A DNA stretch of 64,000 nt from Deltaproteobacteria bacterium (GTDB lineage Bacteria > Myxococcota_A > Polyangia > JAAYKL01): positions 8,755-72,754 of the forward strand of contig JAKQNG010000204.1 of NCBI GenBank assembly GCA_029565915.1. The letters are read 5' to 3'. How positions within the stretch are numbered: position 1 is the first letter of the stretch; each line of letters starts with the position of its first letter. Below, piece by piece: positions 6,001 to 64,000 of the stretch. The notes beneath the pieces are model-generated. The model had not been told where the DNA came from. It made no database searches and saw nothing but the letters and a program-made list of their open reading frames with translations. The position numbers and the translations under genes were made by a program.

Positions 6001-7549
6001 CCCCCAGCTGGACGGGCCCATGGCCCCCAAAGTGGCGGGCACCTGGAACCTGCACCTCGCCACGATCGGCATCCCCCTCGACTGGTTCGTCTCGTTTTCG
6101 TCCATCTCGTCCATTTATGGATTTCCCGGACAGGCGAACTATGCGGCAGCCAACCGGTTCCTGGACGATTTTGCCCTGTACCGTCGCTCCCTGGGGCTCC
6201 CCGGCACCACCATCAACTGGGGGGCACTGCAGGGCGCCGGATTCGTGGAACGCTCGGCCGCGGTGCGCAGTTTCCTCTCCAACAACGGCTGGGAAACGCT
6301 GACGCTGGAGGAGGCGCTGTCCGCCATGGAGCGCGTGCTGCTCGAAGGCCACCCGCAGATGGCCGTGTTCCGTGCGGACTGGTCCACCGTGGGACGCTCT
6401 TTCCCGGCCGGGTTGTCGTCCCTGCGGTTTGCCCATCTGCACGGCGCGGGTGCCGCCGAAAAGGACGACGGTGACCTGCGCGTGGCACTGACGGCGGCAG
6501 CTCCGGCGGCGCGGGCGATGCTGCTGCAGGGGTTCATTGCCGGGGCCACAGGGGCCATCATCGGTGCGGACGGCGCAAAGGTGGATCGACAGACGCCCCT
6601 CAACCGGCTGGGCCTCGATTCCCTGATGGCCAATCAGCTGCGCAGCGTACTGACCTCCCGCACGGGGGTCGAAATTTCTCTCATGCAGATCATGGCCGGG
6701 CCCACCATTGCGGATCTGGCCAACGAAATGGCATCCCGGTTCGAGAACACGGCGACGTCAGGCAGTGATCGTTCCGGTGGACAATGGGTGACGCGGGTCA
6801 CACCGGTTGCTTCACCGCAACTGCGGCTCTTCTGCCTGCCCTATCTGGGCGCCGGCGCCTCGATCTATTCGCGTTGGCAGGTGGGAGAAAACGTGGAGGT
6901 CTGTGCCATCGCCCTTCCCGGACGGGAAGAGCGCATCGGGGAGCCGCCTCTGACAGATGCCCATGAGTTGATCGAAACCATGGCCGGGGCTCTTCTGCCT
7001 CTGCTGGATGTGCCCTTTGCCATTTACGGCCACAGCTTCGGTGGAAACCTGGCCTTCAGCCTGGCGTCCTTCCTGCAGGAACGCCACGGAAAGGTACCCG
7101 ACCGCGTCTTCATCGGCGCCGCCGTGCCGCCGGGGATCGACAATCCCCTTGAAGAAGAGTTCCGCATTGCCGACAAGGATGAGGCCGCACGCCTCTCTGA
7201 CGACGCCCTGCGGGCGCTGCTCCAACGGCTCGGCGCACCGTCGGCGCTGATTCATGATGAAGCGGCGTTTTCCCGGATGGCACCGGCCCTGCGGGCGGAT
7301 CTGGCTATCGCCAAACAGCGTTTATTTCCGTCGGATCACCGTCTCCGCTGTCCCATCGTGGCCATTGCAGCCAGGGGTGACCACCTCTACAGCGAACAAC
7401 TTCTGCGTCACTGGCAACGGCATTCGGATGACTTTTCCCTGGAGGTTGTGAACGGCGGACACCTCTTCGTGCACGAAGACGAAGCAATGAAACACATACT
7501 GAAAATAATGTCACATCGATGGATCACACCGGCCCTGCGCTCGGCCTGA
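2..7549 (+). CDS. Type I polyketide synthase, 5'-truncated at the window edge. Domain order: KS (C-terminal part) - AT - DH - C-methyltransferase - ER - KR - ACP - thioesterase.
   Basis: The reading frame is open from nt 2 (RDGNRIYAAILGSAINEDGR... is a KS-like sequence). AT GHSIGE plus VPFHSH (malonyl-type). DH HxxxGxxxxP (HRVQGPLVFPGAGH). SAM motif LELGAGTGG. ER LIHGAAGGVGLVAVQLA. KR IAGGTRGFGLAVG. ACP LGLDSLMANQLRS. TE GHSFGG. Stop at 7547-7549. Confidence 0.9.
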   Translation, partial: RDGNRIYAAILGSAINEDGRTDGIAQPDKDAQVAVMRAAYADAGIDPSIVGLVEAHGTGTAAGDPVECSSIGQVIGAGRTDRCLIGSVKSNIGHTELASGSAGLIKLALSLFHGQAPPVVHFRTPNPKIDFDGWRLQVPVRVTPVPAREGIRYGAVNSFGFGGANAHLVLRSVPPAETRTTGEGPLCAPLFISARSEKSLRRLAGAYADLLEKGIDGRELAQQVIRHRSRLEDGLALTDPRHADAAARLRNFARGRDSEGVIPGRRQLPEKGQTAFVFSGQGPQWWGMGRELFSAGGVYRDTVEEVSDLLKQIGWLKEEGSDLVAELHRDEASSRMNETAVVQPALFALQLGLARLWMSHGVMPDMVVGHSIGEVAAACVSGALTVAEAVKVVYWRSRCQSRAAGRGRMLAVGLSAEDASGAIGTFGGKIDVAAINGPAMVTLAGDADALALLARGLEERGVFVRFLVVDVPFHSHLLDDVARAFCEEVPAIVSSPPRIPLYSTVTGLPVEGAVLDNDYWAANIRQPVQFYPTVQRMARDGAAAFIEMSPHPILANGLTAALSAAGTKGIVISSLRRKEPDIPTFSGNFCALWLAGGGIDRTVFGPGGAHLREPLPAYPFAEERFWLESPEARADRIGTRVHAHLASCTSAADDGNDQIWQVELDARCAPYIRDHRVQGPLVFPGAGHVDLALAAGMASFGDRLCFLEDIEFIRPLFVREDGEPDAVQLHVVGDEGDYTIAGRTAERDTPWTIFSKGRMNCLGEAFCTEPVSLKMLKARIVHPVALPPLFDVLDRGGLVLGDTFRGIRALWRGEGESLARIEAHPSIVHSLARHCIHPALLDAGFQSAFGILAQEERMGVYIPRRIGRVRFAGPPAGTVLYAWARAAGTDREHLRVDIRIFNEDGSDVLQVEGFEGQYLKGSRGEVDAVDSLFYRYELRPCARRDELVTHRLGAALAPPVPVDEAVRRTMDRHRADPLSARFFDALSPAMDELAMGVILDALRSLDSTLADGAFIDGSRLLDRLGVAERHERLLHAMFDHLVGAGLARRESAGWRMSEWPKKDVRLVVARAQTDLAPFAREIEFFARTGAELAAVLRGETDPGDVLFAGNRFDELADYYANSFTTVRINQMAADAFCALLSTVPAGRPLRVLELGAGTGGLTRHLLPLVEERNGTYLFTDLSPLFLARARETFKYNPAMEFAVLDIETDPAAQGQIPHSWDIVVASNVLHATEDLRRTLANCRSLLCDNGVLCLVEVTRAPRYLDLSFGMTEGWWRFRDDVRTDRCTLSAEAWRSVLAESGFPDVADFSDGEGPDAVAQTLFVARARSAAQGERLDPRRPNGIWLILGDNRGVSAAVSALLRERGDRCIRLTCASKTAPTGVDRFDFDPACPDALIDHLRTFDGPLLGALHTASLDLPPIEDSDPTALLRAQGDGAWSAIGLGRVLSAVGNESFLWLVTAGVHGPTPALSRSPMWGLGRVMMNELTGVAVRLLDVDGALRVEDCARIVQEMCAPCAAPFEEEIVLRDTGRFANVLVRDHRPRRIARAVRTIPSCGATVSLRRSSSFVLDDCIFVPSDTAICSDDDVAIDVHVAGLNFRDVMVAGGTLPREAVEGGLFGDALGLECAGIVTQCGRHVSHVRVGDAVMALARGTLSGRVVARGVLTRKIPSGMGMADAAALPMALLTAWYSLVTLGRLEAGERVLIHGAAGGVGLVAVQLAQAMGAEVFATASRPKHDLLRELGVRYVFDSRSAAWADGVDAAAEGRGVNVVLNSLSGVQLTRGLRLLAPMGRFIEIGKVDLYANRRLAMGLLKDNGAWFSVDIDRLLVQAPQKMAAAFDEALHFFAVRRWPALSVSVHPLSGAADALALMAKGNHRGKIALAAADVPVHPAEHLTVARDGVFLIAGGTRGFGLAVGTFLADRGARHLALLSRGGLRGEEETRAVAALRHRGVNVEIFATDVTDRLAVERVIAAIHREERPLRGVFQSTLVLDDAMLDRMTRPQLDGPMAPKVAGTWNLHLATIGIPLDWFVSFSSISSIYGFPGQANYAAANRFLDDFALYRRSLGLPGTTINWGALQGAGFVERSAAVRSFLSNNGWETLTLEEALSAMERVLLEGHPQMAVFRADWSTVGRSFPAGLSSLRFAHLHGAGAAEKDDGDLRVALTAAAPAARAMLLQGFIAGATGAIIGADGAKVDRQTPLNRLGLDSLMANQLRSVLTSRTGVEISLMQIMAGPTIADLANEMASRFENTATSGSDRSGGQWVTRVTPVASPQLRLFCLPYLGAGASIYSRWQVGENVEVCAIALPGREERIGEPPLTDAHELIETMAGALLPLLDVPFAIYGHSFGGNLAFSLASFLQERHGKVPDRVFIGAAVPPGIDNPLEEEFRIADKDEAARLSDDALRALLQRLGAPSALIHDEAAFSRMAPALRADLAIAKQRLFPSDHRLRCPIVAIAARGDHLYSEQLLRHWQRHSDDFSLEVVNGGHLFVHEDEAMKHILKIMSHRWITPALRSA

Positions 7550-8786: not shown

Positions 8787-8963
8787 GAGATCTCCTTTAC
8801 CCATCGCCGGCGGGTTCCCCCGTCGCGGTCCTGATGATTAGTTGTTTCATCCAGCCGGGATTCCGCAATGCGGCTGTTGGATTCTACCGATTTTCACAGA
8901 ACGGTCGGAATGTTTTTAGTGAGGCAGGATGTTTGGACAAATACTGCAGAACGACCGTGTCTG

Positions 8964-9037
8964 TGGCGGGGGGGAGACTTGAACTCCCGACCTGTGGGTT
9001 ATGAATCCACCGCTCTAACCAGCTGAGCTACCCAGCC
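8964..9037 (-). tRNA. tRNA with CAT anticodon (elongator Met, initiator, or Ile-lysidine type).
   Basis: The reverse complement reads GGCTGGGTAGCTCAGCTGGTTAGAGCGGTGGATTCATAACCCACAGGTCGGGAGTTCAAGTCTCCC-CCCCGCC-A. It has canonical D-arm, T-arm and anticodon-loop signatures. There is one T:C mismatch in the acceptor stem. CCA is not encoded. Confidence 0.8.
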
Positions 9038-19566: not shown

Positions 19567-19611
19567 GGGTCTTCCGGCAACTGGCGCCAGAATAGCGCAG
19601 GTCGGGCTTTC

Positions 19612-19640
19612 TTGACATACCTGTGGAAAGGTATTACTAT
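19612..19640 (+). promoter_or_regulatory. Near-consensus sigma-70-type promoter for the PilZ operon: TTGACA - 17 nt - TACTAT.
   Basis: TTGACA at 19612-19617 and TACTAT at 19635-19640 with a 17-nt spacer, inside an AT-rich 110-nt divergent intergenic region. RBS AGGAGA at 19664-19669. ATG at 19679. Confidence 0.5.
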
Positions 19641-19678
19641 GTAAACAATTTAAGTACATTGTAACAGGAGAAATCACA

Positions 19679-20143
19679 ATGTCACACAACAAGCGTTCCC
19701 AGTTCCGCGTGCCCGAATCCCGGCTCATCACCGAGTTTTCGAAAAACACACCTTTCGCGTCGAGCATTGTCAACCTGAGCTTCGACGGGTTGTACACGGT
19801 CAAGCCCTGCGAAAGCCTGACGACACCCCGGGGTCTCATCCAGCTCGAAATCCCGGTGCCCGAGGCAAGCGAGTCCATCTGGGCCACCGGCGAAGTGCTG
19901 TACGAGCACCACGGCGCAAAATCCGTGGGAACGGGTATCCGCCTGCGGAACATGGCGCAGTTTCACCGCAACCTGCTGCGGGATCTGGTGGAAAGCGGTC
20001 GCCGACAGGTACTGGCGGACATGCTGCAGCAGATTCTGTGGCAGCGCCAGCTCGCCCAGTATCCTACGCTGTTCGATGCCCCGGCGCCGCCGGTGACCGA
20101 GCACACGGTGCCCATGTTCCGCCTCGCGGACCTGCACCCCTGA
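19679..20143 (+). CDS. PilZ-domain c-di-GMP-binding protein.
   Basis: RxxxR motif RSQFR and (D/N)xSxxG motif NLSFDG at the expected spacing. Confidence 0.75.
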   Translation: MSHNKRSQFRVPESRLITEFSKNTPFASSIVNLSFDGLYTVKPCESLTTPRGLIQLEIPVPEASESIWATGEVLYEHHGAKSVGTGIRLRNMAQFHRNLLRDLVESGRRQVLADMLQQILWQRQLAQYPTLFDAPAPPVTEHTVPMFRLADLHP

Positions 20144-34244: not shown

Positions 34245-35348
34245 TCAGGGGTTGTCCTTCTTCATCTTCTTGATGACGTCCTTCGCTTCGTCGTCGAGGA
34301 GCCAGGTCTTCTGCAGGGCCTTCAACACGATGGACAGCTCCCGCATGGTGGCGTTCAGCTCCTTGGCCATGCCGGGTATCTCCGGTCCGATTTTCGCCAT
34401 CTGCACCGAGAGGGTCGTCATGTTGCGCACGAGTTGTTCGATCTGCTGCTCCTTGGTCAGTTGCGCCATGGATACCAGCATTTTGTCCAGCTTGCCGTCG
34501 TTCAGCAGTCGATCGGTTCCCGTCAGCGTCTTCTGCAGGGGCGCTTCCGGTTCGGTGATTTCGTTGAGGCGCGCTATCAGCTTGTCGCTTTTGTTGATCA
34601 GTGACTTCACCTTCTCCGGCTCCAGCGACACCGCCAGTGTTTCGATGAGTTGTTTTGTTTTCTTGTCGCCCATCATGTCCGCTGTATTCTTGAACGCGCG
34701 CGGCACATTCGGATCGGTGACGACTGCCAGCAGGGGTTCGTCGATATCTGTAAAGAACTGATTCATGACATCAAGGGTGGGACCCAGCTTGTCGAAGGAT
34801 TCCAGCATCCGCTCCAGCCGGTCCTGCTCGTCCAGCTTGGTCATCACCACGTCCAGGGATTTCACGGCCCGGTCCATGGTTTCCATGTATTTGCCCAGAT
34901 CCAGGGAGGACACCACGTCGAGCAGGTCCCGCGGTTCATCCACGGGTATCGCCGCGTCCGGGGGCAGCTGGGGCATGGGGCCCTTTGACTCCGGCGGCAG
35001 ATAGAGCAGGACGCGCTTTTCACCGATGCCCAGAGCGCGCCGGATCTCGGCCCGGATCCCGCTGGTAATCCGGTAGGCGTGGACGGTCAGGATGGAGAGG
35101 GTCACGTCGATGCGACCGTCCTTGAGAATGGTCATGTCACCCACCCGGCCGATTTCCACACCGGAAAACAGCACCGGAGAGCCCTTGCTCAGGCCGTCGC
35201 CGCGCACCACGTACACATGGTAGGACGTCTTCGGCGTGAACCAGAGGTTTTCCACCGCGGCGCCGATGATGAACAGCGAGACCAGCACGATGGTCACGAG
35301 AATGAAGAAACCGGCGATCCGCTCGCGATAGGTCAGGTAAATTTTCAC
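34245..35348 (-). CDS. mlaD: MlaD/MCE-domain protein with a long C-terminal helical extension.
   Basis: N-terminal TM helix, then the MCE core (YHVYVVRGDGLSKGSPVLFSGVEIGRVGDM). Confidence 0.8.
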   Translation of the reverse strand: MKIYLTYRERIAGFFILVTIVLVSLFIIGAAVENLWFTPKTSYHVYVVRGDGLSKGSPVLFSGVEIGRVGDMTILKDGRIDVTLSILTVHAYRITSGIRAEIRRALGIGEKRVLLYLPPESKGPMPQLPPDAAIPVDEPRDLLDVVSSLDLGKYMETMDRAVKSLDVVMTKLDEQDRLERMLESFDKLGPTLDVMNQFFTDIDEPLLAVVTDPNVPRAFKNTADMMGDKKTKQLIETLAVSLEPEKVKSLINKSDKLIARLNEITEPEAPLQKTLTGTDRLLNDGKLDKMLVSMAQLTKEQQIEQLVRNMTTLSVQMAKIGPEIPGMAKELNATMRELSIVLKALQKTWLLDDEAKDVIKKMKKDNP

Positions 35349-35359
35349 GGTGTTCTCCT

Positions 35360-36055
35360 TCAGACGCTGCGTTCTTTGTACTCTACCACGATTCCGCCCC
35401 GCTCCTCCAGCCAGCTTTCAAAGCCCCGGTTCCGCCGTGACGCGCAGATGCAGATGCCCGACCGACCGGTCTGGTGCCAGGCCACGAGTTGCCGCCAGGC
35501 GATGCCGGTGCCGCTGTCCATGGCCCAGTCTCCGATGCCCTCCAGCACCAGATAGGCGGGCGACAGCACCATGGCCCGGGCGAGACAGGTGCGCCACCGC
35601 GTGAAGCCGTCCACCATGTGGGGCCGCTGATCGGCTACCGCGTGCAGACCAAACGCCTCAATGTAACGGTGGACCAGCGCAGTTTCTTCTTCGAGGGGCA
35701 ACCGGGCGTGTTCCGAGACGGGCAGCGCCACATTGTCCCGGATGGTCCGGTTGGACAGCAGGCCGCCGTATCCCTGCACGAATCCCAGTCGGGCGCGCAG
35801 CCGCTGGACCTCGCGATATCCGATGTTGTAGACGTCCTGCTCAAACACTTCCACGGTGCCGCGGGTGGGCGGGTGCAGGCTGATCAGGCATCGGGCGATG
35901 GTGCCCGCCGGATCCATGGCGGGGTCGGGATTTTCGGGCACGAGGGCCATCCACTGTCCCGCGTGAAGCCGTACGGGCGGAATGACGCAGACAACGGAGC
36001 CCACGGTAATCCGCAGGCCGTCCGTCAGGCGCAGGATGCATGGCAACCCGGTCAC
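35360..36055 (-). CDS. MlaF-like ABC ATPase homologue with all catalytic motifs degenerate (pseudo-ATPase).
   Basis: Homology to MlaF over LGFVQGYGGLLSNRTIRDNVALPVSEHARLP and ...TCLARAMVLSPAYLVLEG. Walker A is replaced by ENPDPAMD. Signature LSGGM is replaced by DGFTRW. Walker B DE becomes EG. The H-loop His is absent (CICAS). Proposed GTG start overlaps the mlaE stop (GTGGTGA). Confidence 0.55.
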   Translation of the reverse strand: MTGLPCILRLTDGLRITVGSVVCVIPPVRLHAGQWMALVPENPDPAMDPAGTIARCLISLHPPTRGTVEVFEQDVYNIGYREVQRLRARLGFVQGYGGLLSNRTIRDNVALPVSEHARLPLEEETALVHRYIEAFGLHAVADQRPHMVDGFTRWRTCLARAMVLSPAYLVLEGIGDWAMDSGTGIAWRQLVAWHQTGRSGICICASRRNRGFESWLEERGGIVVEYKERSV

Positions 36056-38300: not shown

Positions 38301-40280
38301 TTACATGGACATCGGCCCGCCATCGGGCAGGGGAAGGCGGATGATGAACGTTGTTCCTTCACCGGGACGGGAGTCCACGCGCATTTCGCCGCGATGGGTT
38401 TCTGTGATGATGAAGTAGGACACGGCAAGCCCCAACCCGGTGCCCACACCCACTTCCTTGGTGGTAAAAAACGGCTCGAATACGCGCTTCGCAATGTGTT
38501 CATCCATTCCGGGGCCGTTGTCGGCAATATCGATCTGCAGCATGCCGTCGCGGATGTGTACGCGAATAACGAACTTCGAAGGCACGCGGGAACCGGTCAC
38601 CAGTCGCTGTTCGGCCATGGCCTGGGCGCCATTTTTGAAAACGTTGAACAGCACCTGCTGGATGCGGCTCCGTTCGCAGAGGATGAGGGGCAATCCGGGC
38701 GCGTAGTCCCGTTCGATGGCGATTTTGCGAAAATCGTAATCGTTTTTCAAATCGTAGTCGTTTTTCATGAGCGCCAGGGTTTCCTCGATGAGCGCGGGGA
38801 CATCGTTGGAGGAACTGCTGGAGCTGTTTTTGCGCGTGAAGTTGAGCATGTTGCGGACGATATCCGTGGCCCGTTCTCCGGACTCGCGGATCATTCCGAT
38901 CATCTGCAGAATCCGCCGCTTTTCGAGATACGCTCGGATGGCGGCCATGGTGGTGCCCGCTTCCCGCGCCGCGTCCACATTGGCAGCGAGATCGTCGCGG
39001 AACCGGTTTTCGAGCACCTGAGCGTTCTGCAGCATTCCGCCGAGGGGGTTGTTGATTTCGTGGGCCATGCCCGCGGCGAGCCCGCCCACGGAGATCATCT
39101 TTTCCGACTGCAGCATCATTTCTTCGAACCGCTTCTTTTCACTCACATCGTCCACGCGGATCACTGCCCCTTCCACGCCGTTGGCCACCAGCGGAAAGAT
39201 GGTCACGTCCTCATAGCGCAGCTCATCGTTGACCAGCGTCTTCCGGGTGGGCGAGGTGTGAATCCGCCGCTGACGCATGGCGGCGAGAATATCGTCCATC
39301 TGCGCCGCAAAGCGGGGAAACACATCCGTCAGGTTCTTTCCCACGGCCTCTGCCGCGCGCACGCCGGTCTGCTGCTCCGCGTGGCGGTTCCACTGGGTCA
39401 CCCGGCCGTCCGCGTCCACGGACACCAGCACGGAGGGCATGGAATTGATGATGTTGTCCACGTAGTTGCGTATGTGGATGAGCTCTTTTTCGGCCTGCTT
39501 GCGCGCCGTAATATCCTGCAGGTGTTCAATGACGTACTGCACCTCTCCAGTTTCATTGAGGATGGGATAAGAACGACACAGGAGCCACACCTGCTTTCCG
39601 GTGTGGAACTTTTCAATTTCCGCCGGCTGCTTCGTTTCCCGCGCGATTCTGCTCGCACATTCGTCGCAGGGGTTGTTCCGGCCGATGACTTCGAAACAGT
39701 ATTGCCCTTTCACCTCTTCCAGCGACTTTCCGTGAAAGCGATAGCCCGCCGCATTGTACCGGATGACGCGGCGATCCCGATCCTGCACGCCGATGACGTC
39801 CGGGATGCCGTTGAGCACTGCTTCCAGCAGCTCCTTGCTGTCGGCGAGCTCCCTGGTGCGGTGCGCAATCTCTTCCTCCAGCGCTCGTTGTCGCGCGGCG
39901 ATGGCAAGGTGATTCTGAATCCGCGCGATCAGTTCGTCGGGGAAAACGGGCTTGGTCAGAAAGTCCGCGGCGCCCGCCGCAAAAGCCCCGGACATGATTT
40001 CCGCATCCGCGAATCCGGTGATGAACACCACGGGAATCCGCGCGGTGGCGGCATCGGCCTTCAGCGCCGCGCAGACAGATACGCCGTTTCCATCGGGCAG
40101 GTTCACGTCCAGCAGAATGAGGGCGGGCGGGGCGGTGGCGATGGCCTCCCGGGCGGCGGCGGCGGTGGCGGTGGTGCGGGTCTCCAGACCCCGGGATGTC
40201 AGGGTGGCCGCACAGAGATCACGGCTCAGCGGATCGTCGTCGACAACCAGAATATGTCGGCCGGCCGTGTCTTCGTTCAT
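38301..40280 (-). CDS. Hybrid response regulator / sensor kinase (REC - PAS - PAS - HisKA - HATPase).
   Basis: N-terminal receiver (ILVVDDDP...LLDVNLPDGNG). H-box AAGMAHEINNPL. HATPase DNGPGM...GLGLAVS. Confidence 0.85.
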   Translation of the reverse strand: MNEDTAGRHILVVDDDPLSRDLCAATLTSRGLETRTTATAAAAREAIATAPPALILLDVNLPDGNGVSVCAALKADAATARIPVVFITGFADAEIMSGAFAAGAADFLTKPVFPDELIARIQNHLAIAARQRALEEEIAHRTRELADSKELLEAVLNGIPDVIGVQDRDRRVIRYNAAGYRFHGKSLEEVKGQYCFEVIGRNNPCDECASRIARETKQPAEIEKFHTGKQVWLLCRSYPILNETGEVQYVIEHLQDITARKQAEKELIHIRNYVDNIINSMPSVLVSVDADGRVTQWNRHAEQQTGVRAAEAVGKNLTDVFPRFAAQMDDILAAMRQRRIHTSPTRKTLVNDELRYEDVTIFPLVANGVEGAVIRVDDVSEKKRFEEMMLQSEKMISVGGLAAGMAHEINNPLGGMLQNAQVLENRFRDDLAANVDAAREAGTTMAAIRAYLEKRRILQMIGMIRESGERATDIVRNMLNFTRKNSSSSSSNDVPALIEETLALMKNDYDLKNDYDFRKIAIERDYAPGLPLILCERSRIQQVLFNVFKNGAQAMAEQRLVTGSRVPSKFVIRVHIRDGMLQIDIADNGPGMDEHIAKRVFEPFFTTKEVGVGTGLGLAVSYFIITETHRGEMRVDSRPGEGTTFIIRLPLPDGGPMSM

Positions 40281-40431
40281 CCGACTGTCCACCCCTTCAT
40301 CGGAACGCTGGAGACAACTGACAGAACATCAATGTTACTTTATCGCGCGATAATTAGAACAGAGAAAACCCGTCGGTGCTGCTTTCCCATCTTTCCTTGC
40401 AGACTCCCCGGGCCGTCACTACGATGCACCC

Positions 40432-40896
40432 ATGACCGGAGACTGTCTGGAAAACGGCCTGGTGCGAACCATTGCGGGAAATCAGGCCGTTGTGGTGGTG
40501 ACGCGAACGGAGGCCTGCGGGGCCTGTGCCGCAAGAGGTGCATGTCACGCCCTCGGCGGAGAGAAGGAAGATCTCGCGTTGACACTCGACAATGAGATCG
40601 GAGCGCAGGAAGGGGACACGGTGGCCATCCGCATGCCCTCGGACGCCATCGTGCGGATCTCCGCCATTCTTTATCTGGTGCCGGCCCTGGCGCTCCTTTC
40701 CTTTGCGACGTGCGGGTTCCTGCTGGCGTCACAGGCGGGAATCGCGGGCGACACGGGAACCATCGTCGGCGCGGTGGCGGGCCTGTTGTCGGGATTCGGG
40801 GCCTCCCGGCTTCTGGGTACGCGACTGCGGCGCAAAGGAGAGGGCGTGCCCCGGATGACGGCCATTGTGAACCGATCGGAGGAAAACAGAAAATGA
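40432..40896 (+). CDS. RseC/MucC family protein (SoxR-reducing system component-like).
   Basis: Cys cluster (TEACGACAARGAC) followed by two TM helices. The stop overlaps the next start. Confidence 0.6.
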   Translation: MTGDCLENGLVRTIAGNQAVVVVTRTEACGACAARGACHALGGEKEDLALTLDNEIGAQEGDTVAIRMPSDAIVRISAILYLVPALALLSFATCGFLLASQAGIAGDTGTIVGAVAGLLSGFGASRLLGTRLRRKGEGVPRMTAIVNRSEENRK

Positions 40897-41435
40897 ATGT
40901 GAATGAGGCCATCCGGATGCGCAAGAGCGTGCGGCGATATCGCAGCACTGATGTAGAAGAAGAAAAGCTGACGGAGATCCTGGAAGCAGCGAGGCTCGCG
41001 CCGTCAGCCAGCAATCGGCAGGAGTGGCGATTTATCGTCGTGCGGGATGCAATGACACGTCGTCAGCTCGCCAACGCGGCCAATCAGCAGGCCTTTGTGG
41101 CCGACGCGCCGGTGGTCATCGCGTGCTGTGCGATGACGGACAACCATCTGATGGCCTGCGGTCAGCCCTGCTATCCCATCGACGTCGCCATCGCCATCGA
41201 CCACATGACGCTGGTCGCTGCGTCCCTGGGCCTCGGCACCTGCTGGATCGGCGCATTTGAGGAACCGGCGGTCCGGGGCATTCTCCACATCCCGCGGGAC
41301 GTGCGGATCGTTGAGCTGCTCACCCTCGGATATCCCACTGATCCGTCCATCAAACAGAAGAACCGCCTGGCCCTCCAACAGATTGTCCACTACGAGCGCT
41401 GGAACGGATCGACAAACGGACTGGAGAAGGAATGA
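40893..41435 (+). CDS. Nitroreductase family protein.
   Basis: RKSVRRY...LEAARLAPSASNRQEWRFIVV signature. Confidence 0.8.
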   Translation: MNVNEAIRMRKSVRRYRSTDVEEEKLTEILEAARLAPSASNRQEWRFIVVRDAMTRRQLANAANQQAFVADAPVVIACCAMTDNHLMACGQPCYPIDVAIAIDHMTLVAASLGLGTCWIGAFEEPAVRGILHIPRDVRIVELLTLGYPTDPSIKQKNRLALQQIVHYERWNGSTNGLEKE

Positions 41436-42127
41436 TGACCGATCTGAAAGGAAAGTGGGCCCTCGTGACGGGCTCGAGTCGCGGCATCGGCCGGCAGATT
41501 GCCCTGGGTCTCGCGCAACGCGGGGTGAACATCATCGTGCACGGGCGCACGATGGCAAACGCGGAGGCCACACGTCAACTGCTGGCCCCCAAAGGGGTGC
41601 AGACCGCATGCATCTGCGGCAGTCTCGACAGCGACGACGGAGCCCGCGGGATCGTCGAGCAGGCCCGGGCGGTGGCAGATATCGATATCCTTTACAACAA
41701 CGCGGCCATCCAGAACGAATGGAAGGAGGTCTGGGATATCGCCATCGACGAGTGGAAAGCGTTGTTCCAGATCAATTTCTTTTCGCAGGTGATCATCGCC
41801 AACGGGCTGCTGCCGGGCATGGTGAAACGGGGATGGGGCCGTGCGATCATCCTGACGAGCGGCATTCCCGACATTCCCCAGCTGTCTCCCTACGGCGCCT
41901 CCAAATGGGCGGTGAACAAGTATGTCTTCGACATGGCGGCGCAGCTCCGGGGTTCGGGCGTGACCATCCATGCGCTGGATCCGGGCTGGCTGCGGACGGA
42001 TCTGGGTGGCCCGGAGGGAGAACACCCGGTGGAGGCAGTTCTGCCCGGCGCTCTCGTTCCCGTCATCACCGACAACGTCATTCCCAGCGGTGCCGTGTAC
42101 CGGGCCCAGGACTACCGGGGTCTGTAA
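41432..42127 (+). CDS. Short-chain dehydrogenase/reductase (SDR).
   Basis: TGSSRGIGRQIA Rossmann motif. YxxxK (YGASKWAVNK). Confidence 0.85.
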   Translation: MMTDLKGKWALVTGSSRGIGRQIALGLAQRGVNIIVHGRTMANAEATRQLLAPKGVQTACICGSLDSDDGARGIVEQARAVADIDILYNNAAIQNEWKEVWDIAIDEWKALFQINFFSQVIIANGLLPGMVKRGWGRAIILTSGIPDIPQLSPYGASKWAVNKYVFDMAAQLRGSGVTIHALDPGWLRTDLGGPEGEHPVEAVLPGALVPVITDNVIPSGAVYRAQDYRGL

Positions 42128-42129
42128 AT

Positions 42130-42893
42130 CGGCGGAACTGATTAGAAAGGTACATTCCGCTTCATCCGGGTCCGGAATCCCTCCCGTTTGCCTTCTGAAA
42201 AAGTAACAATTTGAAATTATTAATATTTTAAGTATTTTCCGAACGATAAAGACAGGTCATTTCGCCGACGTGGAAATAAAAAATGAATATTCTGGAGATA
42301 TATATTGGCAACTCTGCATTCCGGCGGTATATTTATTTTCGGAAGGCACCCATGCGGACGGGAACCCGGAAAGGTGCTTTCTAAAAAGGATTTCCGGCCA
42401 TGTGCCGGTGGTGCGACGACCCCGAAAGGGGATATCTGGACTGTCTCTGAACTGAAGGAACCCGAACACGGATGGAGTGCGACGCCCGGATTTGACACCG
42501 GGTCGTCTGGACTGCTCCAGGACTGAGGAACCCAAACACGGAAGAAAGGAGGAAAACCGTGCTTGCAGCACTGGACCAGTTCCGTGGTTCCCGCCACGGC
42601 CGCGTCGCATGTTTTAACAAAGAACTTGCCCGCCGATACCAGCATCCGATGGCGCGCGTTTTCATAGTAGCGGATTCCCGCGGTAAAAATTGCGGTTTCT
42701 GATTAATGGTGTGGATGCTTTCCATCGGCTCCGGGGCTTTTATCTTCAATATATTGAATTTGTATTCCTCAAGTCCTGCGGTGAGGCGGAATCCGGTTGA
42801 AGTACGGACAGTCCCGGTGTAACAAAACTGCGAAATTTTTTACGCGGTCCAAGCGACGGTACCGTCCCGAACGAACAATCGAAGGAGAACACC
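42130..42893 (+). promoter_or_regulatory. 764-nt non-coding leader upstream of oadGAB: AT-rich islet, triplicated GGAACCC(G/A)AACACGG motif, and a stable hairpin.
   Basis: AT-rich stretch at 42199-42340. Motif copies at 42361, 42457 and 42527. The latter two sit in 38-nt direct repeats at 42437-42476 and 42508-42545. Hairpin CCGTGGttcccgCCACGG at 42581-42598. RBS GAAGGAGA precedes the oadG ATG. Confidence 0.5.
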
Positions 42894-43124
42894 ATGAACG
42901 AAATGTTACTGCAGGGGCTTGAACTGATGGCAGCCGGCATGGGAACGGTCTTTCTGTTTCTCATCATCATGGTCTACGTGATGCACCTGTCGGGCGTGAT
43001 CCTCCGGCGGATGGGCACCGGCGAGACCGCGTCACCGGGTGGCGGCAGCGCGGGCGCCGGCGGGGATTCTCTTGAACAGGTTGCTGTGGCAATTGCAGCG
43101 GCGAAACGTCATACGCAGGGTTGA
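42894..43124 (+). CDS. oadG: Oxaloacetate decarboxylase gamma subunit.
   Basis: 76 aa with one N-terminal TM helix (LMAAGMGTVFLFLIIMVYVM). Located immediately upstream of oadA. Confidence 0.7.
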   Translation: MNEMLLQGLELMAAGMGTVFLFLIIMVYVMHLSGVILRRMGTGETASPGGGSAGAGGDSLEQVAVAIAAAKRHTQG

Positions 43125-43137
43125 AAGGACAACGAAC

Positions 43138-44946
43138 GTGGCAAAGAAAAGAATCAAGTTCATGTGCACGGCGTTCCGGGATGGTTTCCAGTCTGTCTAC
43201 GGCGCCAGAGTTCTGACCAGAGACTTCATGCCCGCGGTGGAAGCGGCGAAAAATGCCGGAATTGACTGGTTCGAAGCCGGTGGCGGCGCGCGGTTCCAGT
43301 CCCTGTATTTCTACTGCAACGAAGACGCATTTGACATGATGGATACCTTCCGCAGGGTTGTCGGTCCGTCGGTGAATCTGCAGACCCTCGCCCGGGGCGT
43401 GAATGTGGTGGCCCTTGACTCCCAGCCGGCGGACGTGATCAAGCTGCATGCAGTGCTGTTCAAGAAGCACGGCATCACCAGCATCCGCAATTTCGATGCG
43501 CTGAACGACGTGAACAACCTGATCTACAGCGGTCGGTGCATCACGGAGGCGGGATTGAAACACCAGGTGTGCGTTTCGCTGATGGAGCTGCCGCCGGGCT
43601 GCACGGGTGCCCACGACCCGGATTTCTACGAAAAGACGCTGCGGAAAATCCTGGACGCGGGCATTCCCTACGATTCCGTCTGCTTCAAGGATGCCTCCGG
43701 GACGTCCGTTCCTGCAACCGTGTTCGAAACGGTGAAGCGGGCCAGGAAGATGCTGCCGGCCGGCATCCCCGTTCACTTTCATACGCACGAAACCGCGGGC
43801 ATCGGCGTGACCTGCTACAAGGCGGCCCTGGAGGCGGGCGCGGATGCCATCGATCTGTCCCTGGCGCCGGTGTCCGGCGGCACCTGTCAGCCGGACGTGG
43901 CCACCATGTGGCACGCCCTGCGCGGCACGGAGTTCGATCTGGGCGTGGACATCGACAAGGTGATGGAAGCCGAAGCCGTGTTCAAGGAGTGCATGAAGGA
44001 TTACTTCCTGCCGCCGGAAGCCACCATGGTGGAGCCCCTCATTCCCTGGAGTCCCATGCCGGGCGGCGCCCTGACGGCGAACACCCAGATGCTGCGGGAC
44101 AACCACCAGATGGACAAGTATCAGGACATCATCAAGGCCATGAAGGAAGTGGTTGTGCGGGGCGGCTTCGGCACGTCCGTCACGCCCGTGTCCCAGTTCT
44201 ACTTCCAGCAGGCGTACAACAACGTGATTCACGGGCCCTGGAAGAAGATCGCCGAGGGCTATGGCAAAATGGTGCTCGGTTATTTCGGCCAGACACCGGT
44301 GCCCGCAGATCCGGAAATCGTGAAGATCGCCGCAGAGGCGCTCAAGCTGGAGCCCACCACGAAGACCGCGATGGAAATTGACGACGCGGATCCGAAAAAA
44401 GGCCTCGGCGCGGCAAGGAAGATGCTGGAGGCGGAAAAGCTGCCGGTGACGGACGAAAATCTCTTCATCGTCGCGTCCTGCAAAGACAAGGGCATCCTCT
44501 ACCTGAAAGGGGAGGCCCGGGTGAACGTGCGTAAGAAAGATCCGGCCGCGGCGGCCCCTGCCGCTGCGGGTGCAAAGGCCTCCAGCTACACCGTCACGGT
44601 CAGCGGCACGCCCTACACCGTGTCGTTTGACGGCGACCGGGCCAGCGTGAACGGCCGCTCCTACGACGTGAAGGTGGAAGCCGGCGGATCGGCTCCTGCG
44701 ACCGGCCAGGCGCCGGCAAAGGCATCGGGCGAAACGTCCACCGTGGCCGCGGCCCTGCCGGGCCTCATTGTGCGGATTCCCGCTAAAGTGGGCGATTCGG
44801 TGAAACCCGGAGATGTCCTTGTGGTGATGGAAGCCATGAAGATGGAAATGAATATCGAGGCGGTGTCCGCCGGAACGGTGTCTGCCATCAAGGTAAAGCC
44901 TGGCGACCAGGTGACCCCGGGTACGGAGATGGTGGTCCTCAACTGA
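43138..44946 (+). CDS. oadA: Oxaloacetate decarboxylase alpha subunit (carboxyltransferase + biotinyl domain).
   Basis: Pyruvate carboxyltransferase TIM-barrel. C-terminal biotinyl-lysine motif EAMKMEMNIEA. GTG start with RBS AAGGA. Confidence 0.9.
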   Translation: MAKKRIKFMCTAFRDGFQSVYGARVLTRDFMPAVEAAKNAGIDWFEAGGGARFQSLYFYCNEDAFDMMDTFRRVVGPSVNLQTLARGVNVVALDSQPADVIKLHAVLFKKHGITSIRNFDALNDVNNLIYSGRCITEAGLKHQVCVSLMELPPGCTGAHDPDFYEKTLRKILDAGIPYDSVCFKDASGTSVPATVFETVKRARKMLPAGIPVHFHTHETAGIGVTCYKAALEAGADAIDLSLAPVSGGTCQPDVATMWHALRGTEFDLGVDIDKVMEAEAVFKECMKDYFLPPEATMVEPLIPWSPMPGGALTANTQMLRDNHQMDKYQDIIKAMKEVVVRGGFGTSVTPVSQFYFQQAYNNVIHGPWKKIAEGYGKMVLGYFGQTPVPADPEIVKIAAEALKLEPTTKTAMEIDDADPKKGLGAARKMLEAEKLPVTDENLFIVASCKDKGILYLKGEARVNVRKKDPAAAAPAAAGAKASSYTVTVSGTPYTVSFDGDRASVNGRSYDVKVEAGGSAPATGQAPAKASGETSTVAAALPGLIVRIPAKVGDSVKPGDVLVVMEAMKMEMNIEAVSAGTVSAIKVKPGDQVTPGTEMVVLN

Positions 44947-44973
44947 TTGTTCCTTCTGCAAGGAGAAGTTCCC

Positions 44974-46362
44974 GTGACGAATACAAAGAATACCTTTCTG
45001 CGGATGTCCCGCTCCTGGTGGATTGCCTTCCTGGCCATCCTCGTCGTCGGCACGGCGGCCTCCGCCCTGCTGGCAGCGGACGACAGCGCCCCTGCTCAGT
45101 CGCCTATTGTGGAACCGGATGGTTCGCCGGTGGTGGAGCAGAAGGATAACGCCTTCATGAAGCTGGTGAAGAGCACCGGTCTCTACGCCCTGGCGCAGGG
45201 ATTCATCGAGCTCGGCGGCGGCACGCCGTCGCCAGTGCCGGAGATGGGCTTCCGCCCCAAGAAAAACGTGGAAAAGGAAAAACCCCTGCTGCCGGACGGC
45301 GTGGGCAAGGTGGTGATGATCGCCGTTTCCCTGCTGCTGATCTGGCTGGCCATCAAGAAGGGCTTTGAACCCCTGCTGCTGCTGCCCATCGGCTTCGGCG
45401 GCATTCTGGCAAACATTCCGGTGGAGCACATCGCGGGGCCGGATGGTTTCCTCGGCATCATCTTCGGCTTCGGCATTTCCAACGGCCTCTTCCCCCTGTT
45501 CATTTTCATGGGGGTGGGTGCCATGACCGATTTCGGTCCCCTCATCGCGAATCCGAAGACCGCCCTGCTGGGCGCGGCGGCCCAGTTCGGCATCTTCGCC
45601 ACCCTGCTGGGCGCCATCGCCCTCGGTTTTGACATGCGGGAGGCGGCCTCCATCGGCATCATCGGCGGCGCGGACGGCCCCACGTCCATCTACGTGACGG
45701 TGCGCATGGCCGAACACCTGCTCGGTGCGGTGGCGGTGGCCGCCTATTCCTACATGGCGCTGGTGCCCATCATCCAGCCGCCCATCATGCGCCTGCTGAC
45801 CACAAAGGCCGAGCGGGCCATCAAGATGGACCAGCTGCGGTTCGTGAGCAAAACCGAAAAAATCGTATTTCCGCTGGTGGTGCTGGGCCTGTGCATCCTG
45901 CTGCTGCCCAGCGCGACGCCCCTCATCGGCGCCCTGTGCTTCGGCAACCTGGTGCGGGAAGCGGGTGTGGTGGAGCGGCTCAGCAAGACCCTGCAGAACG
46001 AATTCATCAACATCGTCACCATCCTGCTGGGCCTCACCGTGGGGTCCAAGCTCTCCGCCGACAAGTTCCTGTGCCTCGGCACCCTGAAAATCCTGGTCCT
46101 CGGATGTGCGGCCTTCTCCCTCGGCACCGCCGCGGGTGTGGTGCTCGCAAAAATCATGAACAAATTTTCCAAGTCCCCCATCAATCCCCTCATCGGCTCA
46201 GCCGGCGTATCCGCTGTGCCCATGGCCGCCCGGGTGTCCAACACCGTGGGACTCGAGGCCAACAAGACCAACTTCCTGCTCATGCACGCCATGGGTCCCA
46301 ACGTCTCCGGCGTGATCGGTTCCGCGGTGGCCGCCGGCGTTCTCCTCGCCCTCATCGACTGA
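44974..46362 (+). CDS. oadB: Na+-translocating decarboxylase beta subunit.
   Basis: Polytopic OadB-family membrane protein. RBS AAGGAG, then a GTG at 44974. The ORF-track start at 44947 is a non-ATG codon. Confidence 0.9.
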
Positions 46363-54900: not shown

Positions 54901-55178
54901 TGCCACCACCCGGCCGCCGCCGCAACTGGAATTCGACTACGTAGACATCGACGACGACACCGGCGCGTGAGCTGGACGCTGACAAATTCCTGCCGTCTTC
55001 CATCAGACAGGCGTACGATAGAGTTCAAGCTGACAGAAACAAGGCGGAGGGATGGAAGAAACGATGACTTTCAGACAGCAGGAAAAGGGGCTTAATCCGT
55101 CCGATGTCCAATAGCGAAAATGAATTGGGTGGGCATCCAACAATTTTTCCGACAACAAAAAACAACAAGGGGGCCATC

Positions 55179-56033
55179 ATGTCCATTATTCGTGAAGTTA
55201 TCAGCAAGAAGGTGCGCAGGTCGATGATTGTTCTTTTACTTGTTCTAATTTCAGGGAGTTGCTCCAACAACAATGAAGATGTTGATCAGACTGATGACAC
55301 TGAGAGCAGCAGCGATTCGGACTCGAATGATACCGATACAGATTCTGGTTCCACGGACGCAAACAGCGTGTACGCAAACACAACAATGACCTACGGAGAG
55401 ATTACACCAGAGGACTTTCCGATTCTGTCCGAAGATTGGCGAATCACCGGCATTGAAGCTCTTCGGTGTCTTCTTTGGAACTATGACAGCGAGACCCGTG
55501 TACTGGTTGTGGACTGGATTAATGAGAGTGCGCCATCCACCCATCTTGAATGGCAAATCATGACGGACGATTCAGCGTCGATTACTTCGTTCGTCATTTT
55601 TAAAGACGACGCGGAGTGTTCTGAGAACTCTGGTCTGCTCTACAACTGGCGGATTGAGTCGACACTTGAGGACAGCGCTGAGGGTGGCATGTTTGATGTT
55701 TCCATCCGGAATTGTCTTGCGAATGATTATGAAATTGCAAGGACCGTTCCTGTTTCCCCGGTCGATGTTCCACGAGGTGCGATTTGTCAGCATTTTGATG
55801 ATTTTGAGGTCTTCCCGATGAACACAACTGGGTGTGGTACGCAGGAAGGATTTTGCCGTTCAACAAATAATGTGACCTTCGCAGCAGATTGCACTGTGTC
55901 AGATCAGGTTTGTGAAGTTGGGTTGGAGTGTTTTTCCGACAGGTGTTTATCGCCTTGTGAAACTGTAGACGATTGTGCCGATGAGGTTATCTACGATTGT
56001 CAGAATAGTGTCTGTGTGCTTCGTCAGAACTGA
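55179..56033 (+). CDS. Low-GC, horizontally acquired lipoprotein with an acidic S/T/D linker and a Cys-rich C-terminal module.
   Basis: RBS AAGGGGG. Lipobox LISGSC. Linker SDSDSNDTDTDSGSTD. About 45% GC versus about 67% in the flanks. C-terminus with 12 Cys (CGTQEGFC...CEVGLECFSDRCLSPCETVDDCADEVIYDCQNSVC). Confidence 0.6.
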   Translation: MSIIREVISKKVRRSMIVLLLVLISGSCSNNNEDVDQTDDTESSSDSDSNDTDTDSGSTDANSVYANTTMTYGEITPEDFPILSEDWRITGIEALRCLLWNYDSETRVLVVDWINESAPSTHLEWQIMTDDSASITSFVIFKDDAECSENSGLLYNWRIESTLEDSAEGGMFDVSIRNCLANDYEIARTVPVSPVDVPRGAICQHFDDFEVFPMNTTGCGTQEGFCRSTNNVTFAADCTVSDQVCEVGLECFSDRCLSPCETVDDCADEVIYDCQNSVCVLRQN

Positions 56034-62530: not shown

Positions 62531-62709
62531 TTCTTTATAAATTCCGGAATATTCGCCTCCGGGATCTCCATCGGGATCGGGCCTTCTCGACTTTTTCCCG
62601 ATTTTTTCGTGAAACGCACCTCCCATCATCATCTAAAACAAAGCTCGTAAAAGTTTTCATAAAAAAGGGCCATGAACCCGTTTTCCCCGTATTTCCAAAG
62701 GAGCCTGTC

Positions 62710-64000
62710 ATGAACATGAAGTTTCGCTGGATGTCTGTCGCGGCGCTCATCGCCGTATCCATCAACTGGGGATGCAGCAGCGGTGGTGACAGTGGCGGGC
62801 CGGGAGATGTGGATTCGGACACCGACTCCGATTCGGACAGCGACTCGGATTCGGACACCGACTCGGATTCGGACACTGACTCGGATTCGGACAGCGACTC
62901 GGATTCGGACAGCGACTCCGACAGCGACGGCGACACGGATTTCCAGCTGTTTGATTCCTATCTCTGGGTGGCGAACACCCTGGAAGGCACCGTGTCCAAG
63001 GTGGACACCAAGCTGGCGGTGGAAGTGGCCCGGTACCGGACCTGTCCCCAGGCGGCGGAAAACACCTACTGCGATCCGTCCCGCACTTCGGTGAACCTCC
63101 ACGGCGACATGGTGGTGACCAACCGATATCCCAGTCCCAACACAACGAACCCGGATATTCCCCACCCCTCTTCGGTGACAAAAATCATCTCGGCCCTGGG
63201 CGAGTGCGAGGACCGCAATGACAACGGCCGCATCGATACGTCCGAAGGACCCGATGATGTTCTGGGCTGGCCCGCGGACGGCCCGCCGGAGGATGAATGC
63301 ATCGCGTGGCACACCCCCCTTCCGGAGCGATCCGGTTCCCGGGCCACGGCCTGGGACGGCAGCGAGGACCCGGAATCCGGCGAAGGCGGCAACGTGATCA
63401 TCGGCACCTGCATCACGGCCGAGGGAGACGCGCTGCCCTCCGACAGCTTGGACACCAATCTGGTGTACATCATCAACGGCGACACGGGTGCCATCGAAGA
63501 GACGGTCACCCTTGCACCCGACCAGGAGTGCTTCTACGGCGGCGCCATGGACTACAAGGGCTGGATCTGGCTCATGGAGGGATTCGGCTATCCCCGGTTC
63601 CTCAAGGGAATCAACACGATCAACACAGCGGATACCTCCTACAGCCGGCCCCTCACCTGCGGGTACGGCATCACCGTGGATCCGAACGGCCGGGTGTGGA
63701 CCGGCGGCAAGGGCAACAGCGAGCCCTGTGAATGGGGCACCCACAGCTGCATTCAGCGGATTGATCCGGAGTCGGGCGAAAGTGTCATTTCCGAACCGAT
63801 TCTCAATTCATGGTTGCGGGGCATCGCAGTGGGCAGCGGCCTGAGTGAGAACTACGTGTGGGCCACGGAAACCTCCGGCAACCTCTACAAGATCAACATG
63901 GCCACCGTGGAAGTCGAAGACGTGGTCCGCATCCGGGGTGAGGAGGGCGTCGTGGATGCCAACGGCATGATCGGCGTGGCCATCGACCTCGAAGGGTACA
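62710..64000 (+). CDS. Lipoprotein with a (D-S/T)n acidic linker and a probable beta-propeller domain; runs off the window end.
   Basis: Signal peptide plus Cys (AVSINWGCSS). Linker DVDSDTDSDSDSDSDSDTDSDSDT... Propeller-like repeats (LWVANTLEGTVSKVDT, NLYKINMATVEV). Absent from the ORF track because there is no stop codon in the window; I translated it directly. Confidence 0.6.
   Translation, partial: MNMKFRWMSVAALIAVSINWGCSSGGDSGGPGDVDSDTDSDSDSDSDSDTDSDSDTDSDSDSDSDSDSDSDSDGDTDFQLFDSYLWVANTLEGTVSKVDTKLAVEVARYRTCPQAAENTYCDPSRTSVNLHGDMVVTNRYPSPNTTNPDIPHPSSVTKIISALGECEDRNDNGRIDTSEGPDDVLGWPADGPPEDECIAWHTPLPERSGSRATAWDGSEDPESGEGGNVIIGTCITAEGDALPSDSLDTNLVYIINGDTGAIEETVTLAPDQECFYGGAMDYKGWIWLMEGFGYPRFLKGINTINTADTSYSRPLTCGYGITVDPNGRVWTGGKGNSEPCEWGTHSCIQRIDPESGESVISEPILNSWLRGIAVGSGLSENYVWATETSGNLYKINMATVEVEDVVRIRGEEGVVDANGMIGVAIDLEGY
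62808..62940 (+). repeat. Tandem 12-nt repeats (gactcggattcggacagc/acc) encoding the DSDSDT linker.
   Basis: At least ten near-identical units between 62808 and 62940. Confidence 0.75.

Follow-up and report, generated by a model that had tools for sequence, protein, structure and literature searches.

A conserved structured element upstream of oadGAB in an uncultured deltaproteobacterium, a candidate new family of small non-coding RNAs

Introduction

RsaE/RoxS of Firmicutes and Yfr1 of cyanobacteria are trans-acting small RNAs whose C/U-rich seed loops pair with Shine-Dalgarno regions. The small RNA Pxr, found in Myxococcus xanthus and its relatives, is 108 nt long, folds into three stem-loops, lies downstream of a sigma54-dependent regulator and occurs as tandem paralogues in some genera (PMC5568312). 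In addition, a riboregulator of some oxaloacetate decarboxylase genes is known, the Na+-I riboswitch or DUF1646 motif (PMC9337991).

The locus described here lies in a stretch of 64,000 nucleotides (the window, whose positions are used throughout), in which a gap of 766 nt without coding genes (42128-42893) has a short-chain dehydrogenase (SDR) gene on one side and oadG, the first gene of oadGAB, on the other. The original prediction read this gap as a structured, repeat-bearing leader of oadGAB, either a riboregulator or a multi-site operator. Comparison with relatives points elsewhere, and the apparent 'operon leader' may prove to be an unrelated gene on the opposite strand.

Results

A conserved element within the gap

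That the gap is a real non-coding interval before oadGAB was confirmed, with oadG, oadA and oadB verified by Pfam, and so was its AT-rich islet, where GC content falls to 27% (42125-42358), the lowest in the window, against a 64-kb mean of 63%. As a whole the gap is ordinary in structure (z = -0.65 for 42335-42720), and in a sliding fold scan only 42460-42600 stands out, where z on the minus strand reaches -4.2. The features discussed below are collected in Table 1.

Table 1. Coordinates of features in and around the gap (window positions, except where a relative is named)
Feature	Position	Strand	Description
SDR gene (short-chain dehydrogenase)	41432-42127		upstream edge of the gap
AT-rich islet	42199-42340	none	holds the gap's only two sigma70-like matches
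sigma70-like match TTGAAA-16-TATTTT	42211-42238	plus	in the AT islet
sigma70-like match TTGGCA-17-TATATT	42305-42333	plus	10/12; in the AT islet
terminator-like hairpin CCGGCACAUGGCCGG, then AAAUCCUUUUU	42385-42408	minus	weak hairpin + U5; weak evidence
repeat unit U1	42411-42472	minus	degenerate tandem copy of the RNA's 3' half; window lineage only
conserved structured RNA core, candidate sRNA	42477-42610	minus (probable)	134 nt, five lineages
P1, closing helix	42478-42485 (3' strand) with 42602-42609	minus	8 bp; edge of the conserved block
internal loop GGUUCCU	42526-42532	minus	invariant; second CU-rich unpaired motif
P4	42533-42565 (42557-42565 with 42533-42541)	minus	9 bp, 4 variable pairs
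P4 apical loop	42542-42556	minus	15 nt; minus UUUUCCUCCUUUCUU, plus AAGAAAGGAGGAAAA; invariant in five lineages
ORF47	42559-42702	plus	47-codon GTG ORF behind AAGGAGG; by-product of the RNA sequence, not conserved
P2, CCGUGG-CGGGAA-CCACGG	42582-42599	minus	the 6-bp hairpin of the original prediction; invariant in five lineages
weak hairpin with CCGCGG, then UUUCUGAUU	42678-42695	plus	-7.3 kcal/mol
block resembling a promoter-like sequence upstream of oadG in PVC-group relatives	42812-42847	plus	about 60% identity
oadG	42894-43124		identity by Pfam
oadA	43138-44946		identity by Pfam
oadB	44947-46362		identity by Pfam
element copies in relatives	L224 5524-5657; L226 6734-6867; L228 6726-6859; L229 4242-4375		

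The conserved core was discovered via relatives of the upstream SDR gene, not via relatives of the oad genes. The lineage L224 has an SDR of 64% identity, and past this gene its DNA contains a match to window positions 42448-42613 (E = 3e-33). Across five lineages (the window, L224, L226, L228 and L229) the element, which spans the second repeat unit, an AAGGAGG box and the 6-bp hairpin, is 90-98% identical in nucleotide sequence, whereas the adjacent SDR genes of the same lineages share 62-70% nucleotide and 62-72% amino-acid identity, and the flanks are only about 40-60% identical and therefore unalignable. The element ends sharply on both sides, at the closing helix of the fold described below. 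A conservation so far above that of the genes excludes neutrality, and strong selection follows from the wide margin by which the RNA exceeds the neighbouring proteins in conservation. The ranking of the copies by identity parallels that of the SDR proteins, which fits vertical descent. All hosts are uncultured, only distantly related bacteria that carry the NCBI label 'Deltaproteobacteria bacterium'.

A covariance model built from the element (R1) gives 167.7 bits at the window copy, and a search with it found one copy in the window and 0 in 90 oad loci. Further copies were found neither in the window nor in the other retrieved loci, matches were absent from plasmid, phage and viral collections, and no match to the loop and hairpin strings was found in the literature. 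These results bear on the suggestion that the conserved block acts as DNA, as a protein-binding or recombination site, or is the remnant of a mobile element or neutral debris of rearrangement. A synteny breakpoint beside the AT-rich islet and a local tandem duplication would suit such an origin, but the conservation of the element relative to the genes, its single copy, the missing matches in mobile collections, and the compensatory and G·U-only substitutions reported below render it very improbable.

Contigs of the same species from metagenomes (L001-L010, L156) are 99.9-100% identical, that is, clonal, and thus hold no comparative information. A metagenome scan with the 17-mer AGGAACCCRAACACGGA, a pattern that is too short, returned at least 120 stretches; among the matches listed, all but those from the same species were chance matches in coding DNA, and many of the AGGAACCCRAACACGGA matches encode SVFGFL of ABC ATPases.

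A common predicted fold with compensatory changes

Each of the five sequences independently reaches one common minimum-free-energy fold (z -2.9 to -3.8, ensemble frequency 0.24-0.40). In this predicted minus-strand structure, helix P1 encloses hairpin P2, a long arm, P3-P4, and hairpin P5, with a single strand of 9 nt between the arm and P5. P2 corresponds to the 6-bp hairpin CCGTGGttcccgCCACGG that had been noticed before; the hairpin is real, and its coordinates had been placed one base off the actual 42582-42599. The previously noticed motif GGAACCCAAACACGG (42527-42541, plus strand) turns out to be the 3' strand of P4 together with the internal loop. Motif and hairpin are both part of something non-random, and the original suggestion of a structured, RNA-like element in this region has held up.

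All four variable pairs of P4 are Watson-Crick or G·U on the minus strand. Three pairs are compensatory (minus-strand columns 40-91, 47-77 and 50-74), and at two of these L228 carries G·U intermediates between both Watson-Crick states. Overall, minus-strand pairing is maintained in 99.5% of cells, compared with 31-42% in slid controls. Compensatory changes together with changes that yield only G·U point to selection on RNA pairing. The covariation is drawn from five sequences of low diversity that vary at a minority of the pairs, and its value is reached in 16 of 500 shuffles; with this modest depth, the predicted fold nonetheless places the element among structured non-coding RNAs in the generic sense.

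The element has no counterpart among the families of Rfam. With Rfam 15 (4227 models, riboswitches and known sRNAs among them), a search of window positions 41900-43200 at E <= 10 gave three chance hits, 0 of them on 42477-42610; the same threshold gave no hit on the element in L226 (6690-6960, 271 nt), and the whole window at gathering threshold yielded tRNA-Met only. The covariance-model scan proposed as a check for a riboregulator therefore returned no family for this interval.

Strand and transcript ends

The two strands differ in how they accommodate the substitutions. On the minus strand 194 of the 195 cells are paired, with nine extra pair types and an RNAalifold covariation term of -1.48, whereas the mirror structure on the plus strand pairs 185 of 195, with a term of +0.64; nine of the ten unpaired plus-strand cells are A·C or C·A mismatches, six of them in P4. 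Wherever only one side of a pair has changed, the minus strand has a G·U. This asymmetry, G·U on one strand and A·C on the other, suggests that the RNA is probably antisense to oadG and the SDR gene. Behind the strand call stand five or more independent transitions (p roughly 0.03), and on this basis we consider it probable that the functional RNA is made from the minus strand.

Were the plus strand the functional one, the conserved RNA would be a 3'-UTR, or a small RNA derived from the 3'-UTR, of the rseC-nitroreductase-SDR operon; in the window a promoter in the AT islet could drive it, making it part of a long oadGAB 5' region, and the exposed AAGAAAGGAGGAAAA and GGA motifs would act as a decoy for a CsrA/RsmA-type protein or the ribosomal anti-Shine-Dalgarno sequence. 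The element and the SDR gene do point the same way in all five lineages, and in L226 and L228 a distance of 30-38 nt separates the SDR stop from the start of the element. On the plus strand L228 has a canonical hairpin and U7 terminator after the element, and a conserved U-rich block follows it in L224, L226 and L229. GGA occurs 7-8 times on the plus and 3 times on the minus strand, about half of the plus-strand copies being unpaired, and the gap's sole sigma70-like matches lie on the plus strand, upstream of the element. The plus-strand fold is also good (z -2.7 to -3.4), and an alternative plus-strand hairpin accommodates two of the changes. However, the nine A·C-type mismatches place one or two in P4 in every sequence, where the minus strand has G·U throughout, and the plus-strand folds are 4.6-7.4 kcal/mol weaker, with lower ensemble frequency. 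We regard a plus-strand origin, the main rival of the minus-strand reading, as rather unlikely.

For the preferred minus-strand RNA, the signals at its ends vary among lineages. A tract of U7-U8 follows the element directly in L224 and L228 and is absent in the window and L226. In the window the minus strand continues after the element into U1 and then into a weak hairpin with U5 (42408-42385), which is weak evidence for a possible 3' end of the transcript. A convincing promoter for the element was seen on neither the plus nor the minus strand. The four relatives share an A/T-rich block, TTGAAAAAAA...TGAGAAA, at 35 nt upstream in the minus sense; it fits neither a sigma70 nor a sigma54 promoter, and no sigma54 promoter of the form GG-N10-GC was found within 190-280 nt upstream. 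A sigma54-dependent small RNA of the Pxr type was considered and set aside: no sigma54 promoter was found, and the corresponding neighbourhood exists in the four relatives, not in the window. If the oadGAB 5' region is transcribed from the AT islet, it would be antisense to the RNA gene.

Genomic context and the relation to oadGAB

A key finding from the comparison is that the element keeps its company without oadGAB. All four relatives have it flanked by the rseC-nitroreductase-SDR cluster on one side and, on the other, by a convergent PilZ-like gene with a sigma54-dependent response regulator, a cluster followed by yebC and ruvC. Its distance from the stop codon is 30-830 nt for the SDR gene and 190-240 nt for the PilZ-like gene. 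None of the four carries oadGAB at this locus, and the element is absent upstream of oad both at the closest oadGAB operons and at 80-90 other oad loci. Separate contigs carry the SDR cluster and oadGAB in GCA_016937935.1, the closest known genome. Conversely, the PilZ-like gene, yebC and ruvC are absent from the window, whose lineage has lost the sigma54-activator neighbourhood altogether. Since the element occurs without oadGAB in relatives and has no copy at other oad loci, it belongs to the SDR/PilZ neighbourhood.

The nearest OadG relatives are 48-60% and the nearest OadA relatives 74-75% identical; their regions upstream of oadG are short and unrelated (gaps of 43-600 nt, with other neighbours), and the comparison of oadG upstream regions that had been proposed as a check showed the element to be absent there. 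The neighbourhood downstream of the SDR cluster likewise differs between the window and the relatives. By these comparisons the gap (42128-42893) is specific to the lineage in its length and sits at a synteny breakpoint, and the element came to lie before oadGAB by accident, through a rearrangement specific to the window lineage.

The reading of the gap as a cis-acting riboswitch, attenuator or multi-site operator of oadGAB, responsive to substrate or Na+, has to be judged against this background. Between the element and oadG are 284 nt in which no good promoter is seen, a Na+ riboswitch class is known before some oxaloacetate decarboxylase genes (PMC9337991), and the Shine-Dalgarno-like box, the ORF and the weak hairpin of the window can be read as an attenuator. 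Yet the conserved core is kept in four relatives without oadGAB and is absent from the other oad loci examined, Rfam has no match to it at E <= 10, and neither the ORF nor its start codon is conserved. The supposed terminator at 42678-42695 has -7.3 kcal/mol and is unremarkable, one of 150 comparable sites within the window. Relatives carry a single copy of the motif rather than an array, no gene for a DNA-binding regulator was found adjoining the oad locus in the window, and the covariation favours the strand opposite to oadG. The comparative data thus appear largely to refute a leader or operator of oadGAB, which we now hold to be very improbable. Two more specific candidates failed in the same way. 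The Na+-I riboswitch (DUF1646 motif) was excluded by covariance-model search, context and strand, and a leader peptide or translation-coupled attenuator was rejected because the start of the ORF is not conserved and the hairpin is unremarkable.

Of the minor features of the gap, the palindromic CCGCGG segment is present as described (42678-42683). Closer to oadG, a promoter-like block that PVC-group relatives conserve in front of oadG may have left a decayed remnant at 42812-42847.

The repeated motif is a lineage-specific duplication

The motif GGAACCC(G/A)AACACGG had been counted three times; exactly two copies exist (42457 and 42527), the nearest further one (42361) having four mismatches, and the gap holds no third copy with three mismatches or fewer. 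The direct repeat itself is real, a tandem duplication of about 70 nt whose best off-diagonal self-alignment scores 42, compared with 20.8 +/- 2.8 and a maximum of 34 in 200 dinucleotide shuffles. Its units, U1 (42411-42472) and 42477-42542, are 70% identical, and the second motif copy (42457-42471) sits inside U1. In the relatives there is no second copy, only a single one of GGAACCCRAAYACGG embedded in P4 and the internal loop, and elsewhere in the window the motif is not enriched. The motif is therefore repeated in the window because this lineage carries U1, a degenerate duplicate of the 3' half of the RNA. A multi-site operator, as originally proposed, does not agree with one motif copy in the relatives and a second that is a lineage-specific duplication, and an array of transcription-factor operators was rejected for the same reason, the motif not being kept as repeats. 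Two other ideas fell short of significance: an inverted third repeat copy at the sequence level (score 26 versus 21.7 +/- 4.2 in shuffles), and selection as read from the mosaic conservation between U1 and the second unit (runs test, p = 0.07).

Coding potential

The gap had been described as holding only a 34-codon ATG frame. Other ORFs exist, including minus-strand ORFs of 117-141 aa, and the underlying judgement was sound in that none has coding support. Values of GC3 are 0.46-0.59 in the gap ORFs versus 0.69-0.85 in genes, Pfam gave no hits on the six frames of the gap, and no real homologues of the gap ORFs were found among 1.84 billion representatives. In the element, none of the frames keeps a start or stop codon across the lineages, and the substitutions are non-synonymous in every frame.

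A small protein encoded in the element, either ORF47 on the plus strand or a minus-strand ORF of 141 aa, might be suspected from the canonical AAGGAGG 6 nt before the GTG, from the four of six frames that are open across the element, and from a gene call in L224 that lengthens the latter ORF to a product of 306 aa and starts inside the element. Against this, the start codon is missing in all four relatives (they have GCA or GTA in place of the GTG of ORF47) and the ORFs end at other positions, there is neither GC3 bias nor a Pfam hit, the database matches are low-complexity artefacts only, and translations of the flanks are not conserved. Such a protein is improbable in the extreme, and on the pattern of substitutions a coding function of the element is excluded. 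The 306-aa call merely takes the element as a spurious N-terminus. The case is a caution for annotation, as gene callers have built spurious ORFs on the element (the L224 call and ORF47).

Pseudogenes were considered as well. The idea of an oadA pseudogene, which came from short blastn hits, was dropped when the OadA HMM gave no hit, and for an ABC-ATPase pseudogene the ABC HMM matched only SVFGFL, the word used for selecting it.

Discussion

Taken together, the data make it reasonably probable that 42477-42610 is the gene of a conserved, structured small non-coding RNA of the minus strand, a candidate new family that would act in trans. On the most economical model, the RNA, transcribed from the minus strand, would expose its CU-rich loops for pairing with AGAAAGGAGG-like Shine-Dalgarno regions of mRNAs, and such pairing would block or modulate the initiation of translation. 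The invariant loop UUUUCCUCCUUUCUU looks like an anti-Shine-Dalgarno seed, and we propose it as such. Neither it nor GGUUCCU varies, and the consensus leaves both unpaired, as a seed of the anti-Shine-Dalgarno type should be, and we infer from the predicted fold that these two motifs would be the natural functional sites. Shine-Dalgarno sites of the form AAGGAG/GGAGG are in use at real genes of the window, and the loop, which is complementary to extended sites of the AAGGAGG type, could pair with them.

It is tempting to speculate further. The loop contains the 10-nt string CCUCCUUUCU, which we take to be the 3' tail, the anti-Shine-Dalgarno sequence, of many bacterial 16S rRNAs. Perhaps the RNA is a mimic of this tail, a folded scaffold that displays CCUCCUUUCU and a second UCCUC motif and that would, transcriptome-wide, occupy strong Shine-Dalgarno sites in competition with ribosomes. 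We think this version unlikely; if true, it would mean a global translation-damping RNA in a clade of uncultured bacteria, possibly wired to the neighbouring sigma54/PilZ signalling genes. A mirror version may also be imagined, in which a decoy Shine-Dalgarno RNA from the plus strand titrates ribosomes or a CsrA-like protein, outside Gammaproteobacteria.

New families of small RNAs in uncultured bacteria are not surprising in themselves. The locus is a candidate for one that is absent from Rfam and so far comprises five uncultured lineages, and the covariance model R1 could be used to map its distribution.

Among described systems, the minus-strand RNA that we favour is most readily set beside RsaE/RoxS and Yfr1. 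Like these, it is a short structured RNA (about 130 nt), its invariant CU-rich motifs (CCUCC or UCCUC) are unpaired in hairpin and internal loops, and it is intergenic, lying between convergent genes. Unlike them, it is predicted to adopt a closed multi-branch fold instead of two or three independent hairpins in a row, its putative seed is a 15-nt loop with a 10-nt string resembling the 16S tail, and it has no Rfam match.

The comparison with Pxr concerns context above all. In the four relatives the element, like Pxr, is downstream of a sigma54-dependent response-regulator gene and, on the probable strand, co-oriented with it; the sizes are of the same order, and the partial tandem duplicate of the window recalls the tandem paralogues of Pxr. 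On the other hand, a PilZ-like gene lies between the element and the regulator, the GG-N10-GC sigma54 promoter is missing, the fold is different, and the sequences show no similarity. Like the Na+-I riboswitch, the element is a structured RNA that precedes an oad operon, in the window only; it differs in that it is probably on the opposite strand and has no conserved expression platform. Finally, were the plus strand the functional one, and in that case only, the element with 7-8 GGA along its 134 nt, several of which fall into loops or single strands, would resemble CsrB/RsmY/RsmZ; it is much shorter than CsrB, however, has no Rfam match, and belongs to a strand that the covariation disfavours.

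Conserved blocks beside the RNA core and upstream of oadG

In each of the four relatives that carry the RNA core downstream of the SDR gene (loci L224, L226, L228 and L229), a second conserved block lies about 45-75 nt after the core, reading TTTCTCAyyTTTgGATAnTTTTTTTCAAyG on the plus strand and CrTTGAAAAAAA...TGAGAAA on the minus strand. A hairpin is present every time between core and block, with variable sequence. A possible role for the second block is that of a promoter of unknown type driving the minus-strand RNA; alternatively, it may act as a terminator tract on the plus strand.

The RNA element of L224 has also been drawn into a gene call, as the first ~48 residues of a 306-aa protein from the gene caller are the translated element. 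This call is an annotation artefact; its remainder has the appearance of a real beta-helix repeat protein, the true start of which is probably downstream of the RNA element. The artefact may recur in databases.

Among relatives with oad genes, those of the PVC group (Kiritimatiellia, Verrucomicrobia and Lentisphaeraceae MAGs) share a sequence block that precedes oadG by 25-45 nt, laid out as CT(G/A)TAC(A/T)T, ~19 nt, CGATA(T/G/A)A(A/C)TC, 3-4 nt, CGGCA(A/T)A(A/T)TGTTATT and GAGGAG. Of 221 loci, 5 have an exact match to CGGCAWAWTGTT, each time at the position of this block. For the oad operon, the block could supply a promoter and, with it, an operator or a conserved 5' end. Its counterpart in the window is at best a 60% remnant (42812-42847 compared).

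Features of the gap and of the wider window

Within the gap between the SDR gene and oadG, a local palindrome, CCGGAAAGGTGCTTTCTAAAAAGGATTTCCGG, makes the best inverted repeat, and nested inverted repeats flank the AT-rich islet. These had no significance against shuffles and were not seen in relatives. Three more AT-rich spots in the window have 37-39% GC, against 63% overall.

Apart from a tRNA-Met (CAT), the 64-kb window has no Rfam or ARAGORN match. It also contains an ORF of 2483 aa, very long and with a GC3 like that of genes.

Directly before the start codon, oadG and an MlaD-domain gene have an identical 13-nt ribosome-binding context, GAAGGAGAACACC. Upstream of the gap, the rseC, nitroreductase and SDR genes are translationally coupled and run divergently to the gene for a hybrid histidine kinase (REC-PAS-PAS-HisKA-HATPase). 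At the position matching this kinase, relatives retain a REC-PAS protein, so the divergent pair is a conserved unit.

Positions of the features discussed
Feature	Sequence	Position	Strand
Second conserved block	L224	5700-5740	plus
Second conserved block	L226	6905-6945	plus
Second conserved block	L228	6900-6925	plus
Second conserved block	L229	4410-4450	plus
306-aa call	L224	4745-5665	minus
oadG-upstream block	L018	3590-3710	
oadG-upstream block	L022	2205-2330	
oadG-upstream block	L025	1700-1822	
oadG-upstream block	L026	215-345	
oadG-upstream block	L029	3610-3730	
oadG-upstream block, weaker form	L061	2010-2115	
Local palindrome	window	42366-42397	
Nested inverted repeats	window	42142-42159/42367-42384; 42189-42201/42336-42348	
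AT-rich spots	window	19579-19718; 55102-55323; 62567-62734	
tRNA-Met (CAT)	window	8963-9037	minus
2483-aa ORF	window	98-7549	plus
GAAGGAGAACACC before oadG	window	42881-42893	
GAAGGAGAACACC before MlaD-domain gene	window	35349-35361	minus
MlaD-domain gene	window	34245-35348	minus
Hybrid histidine kinase	window	38301-40292	minus
rseC-nitroreductase-SDR	window	40432-42127	plus
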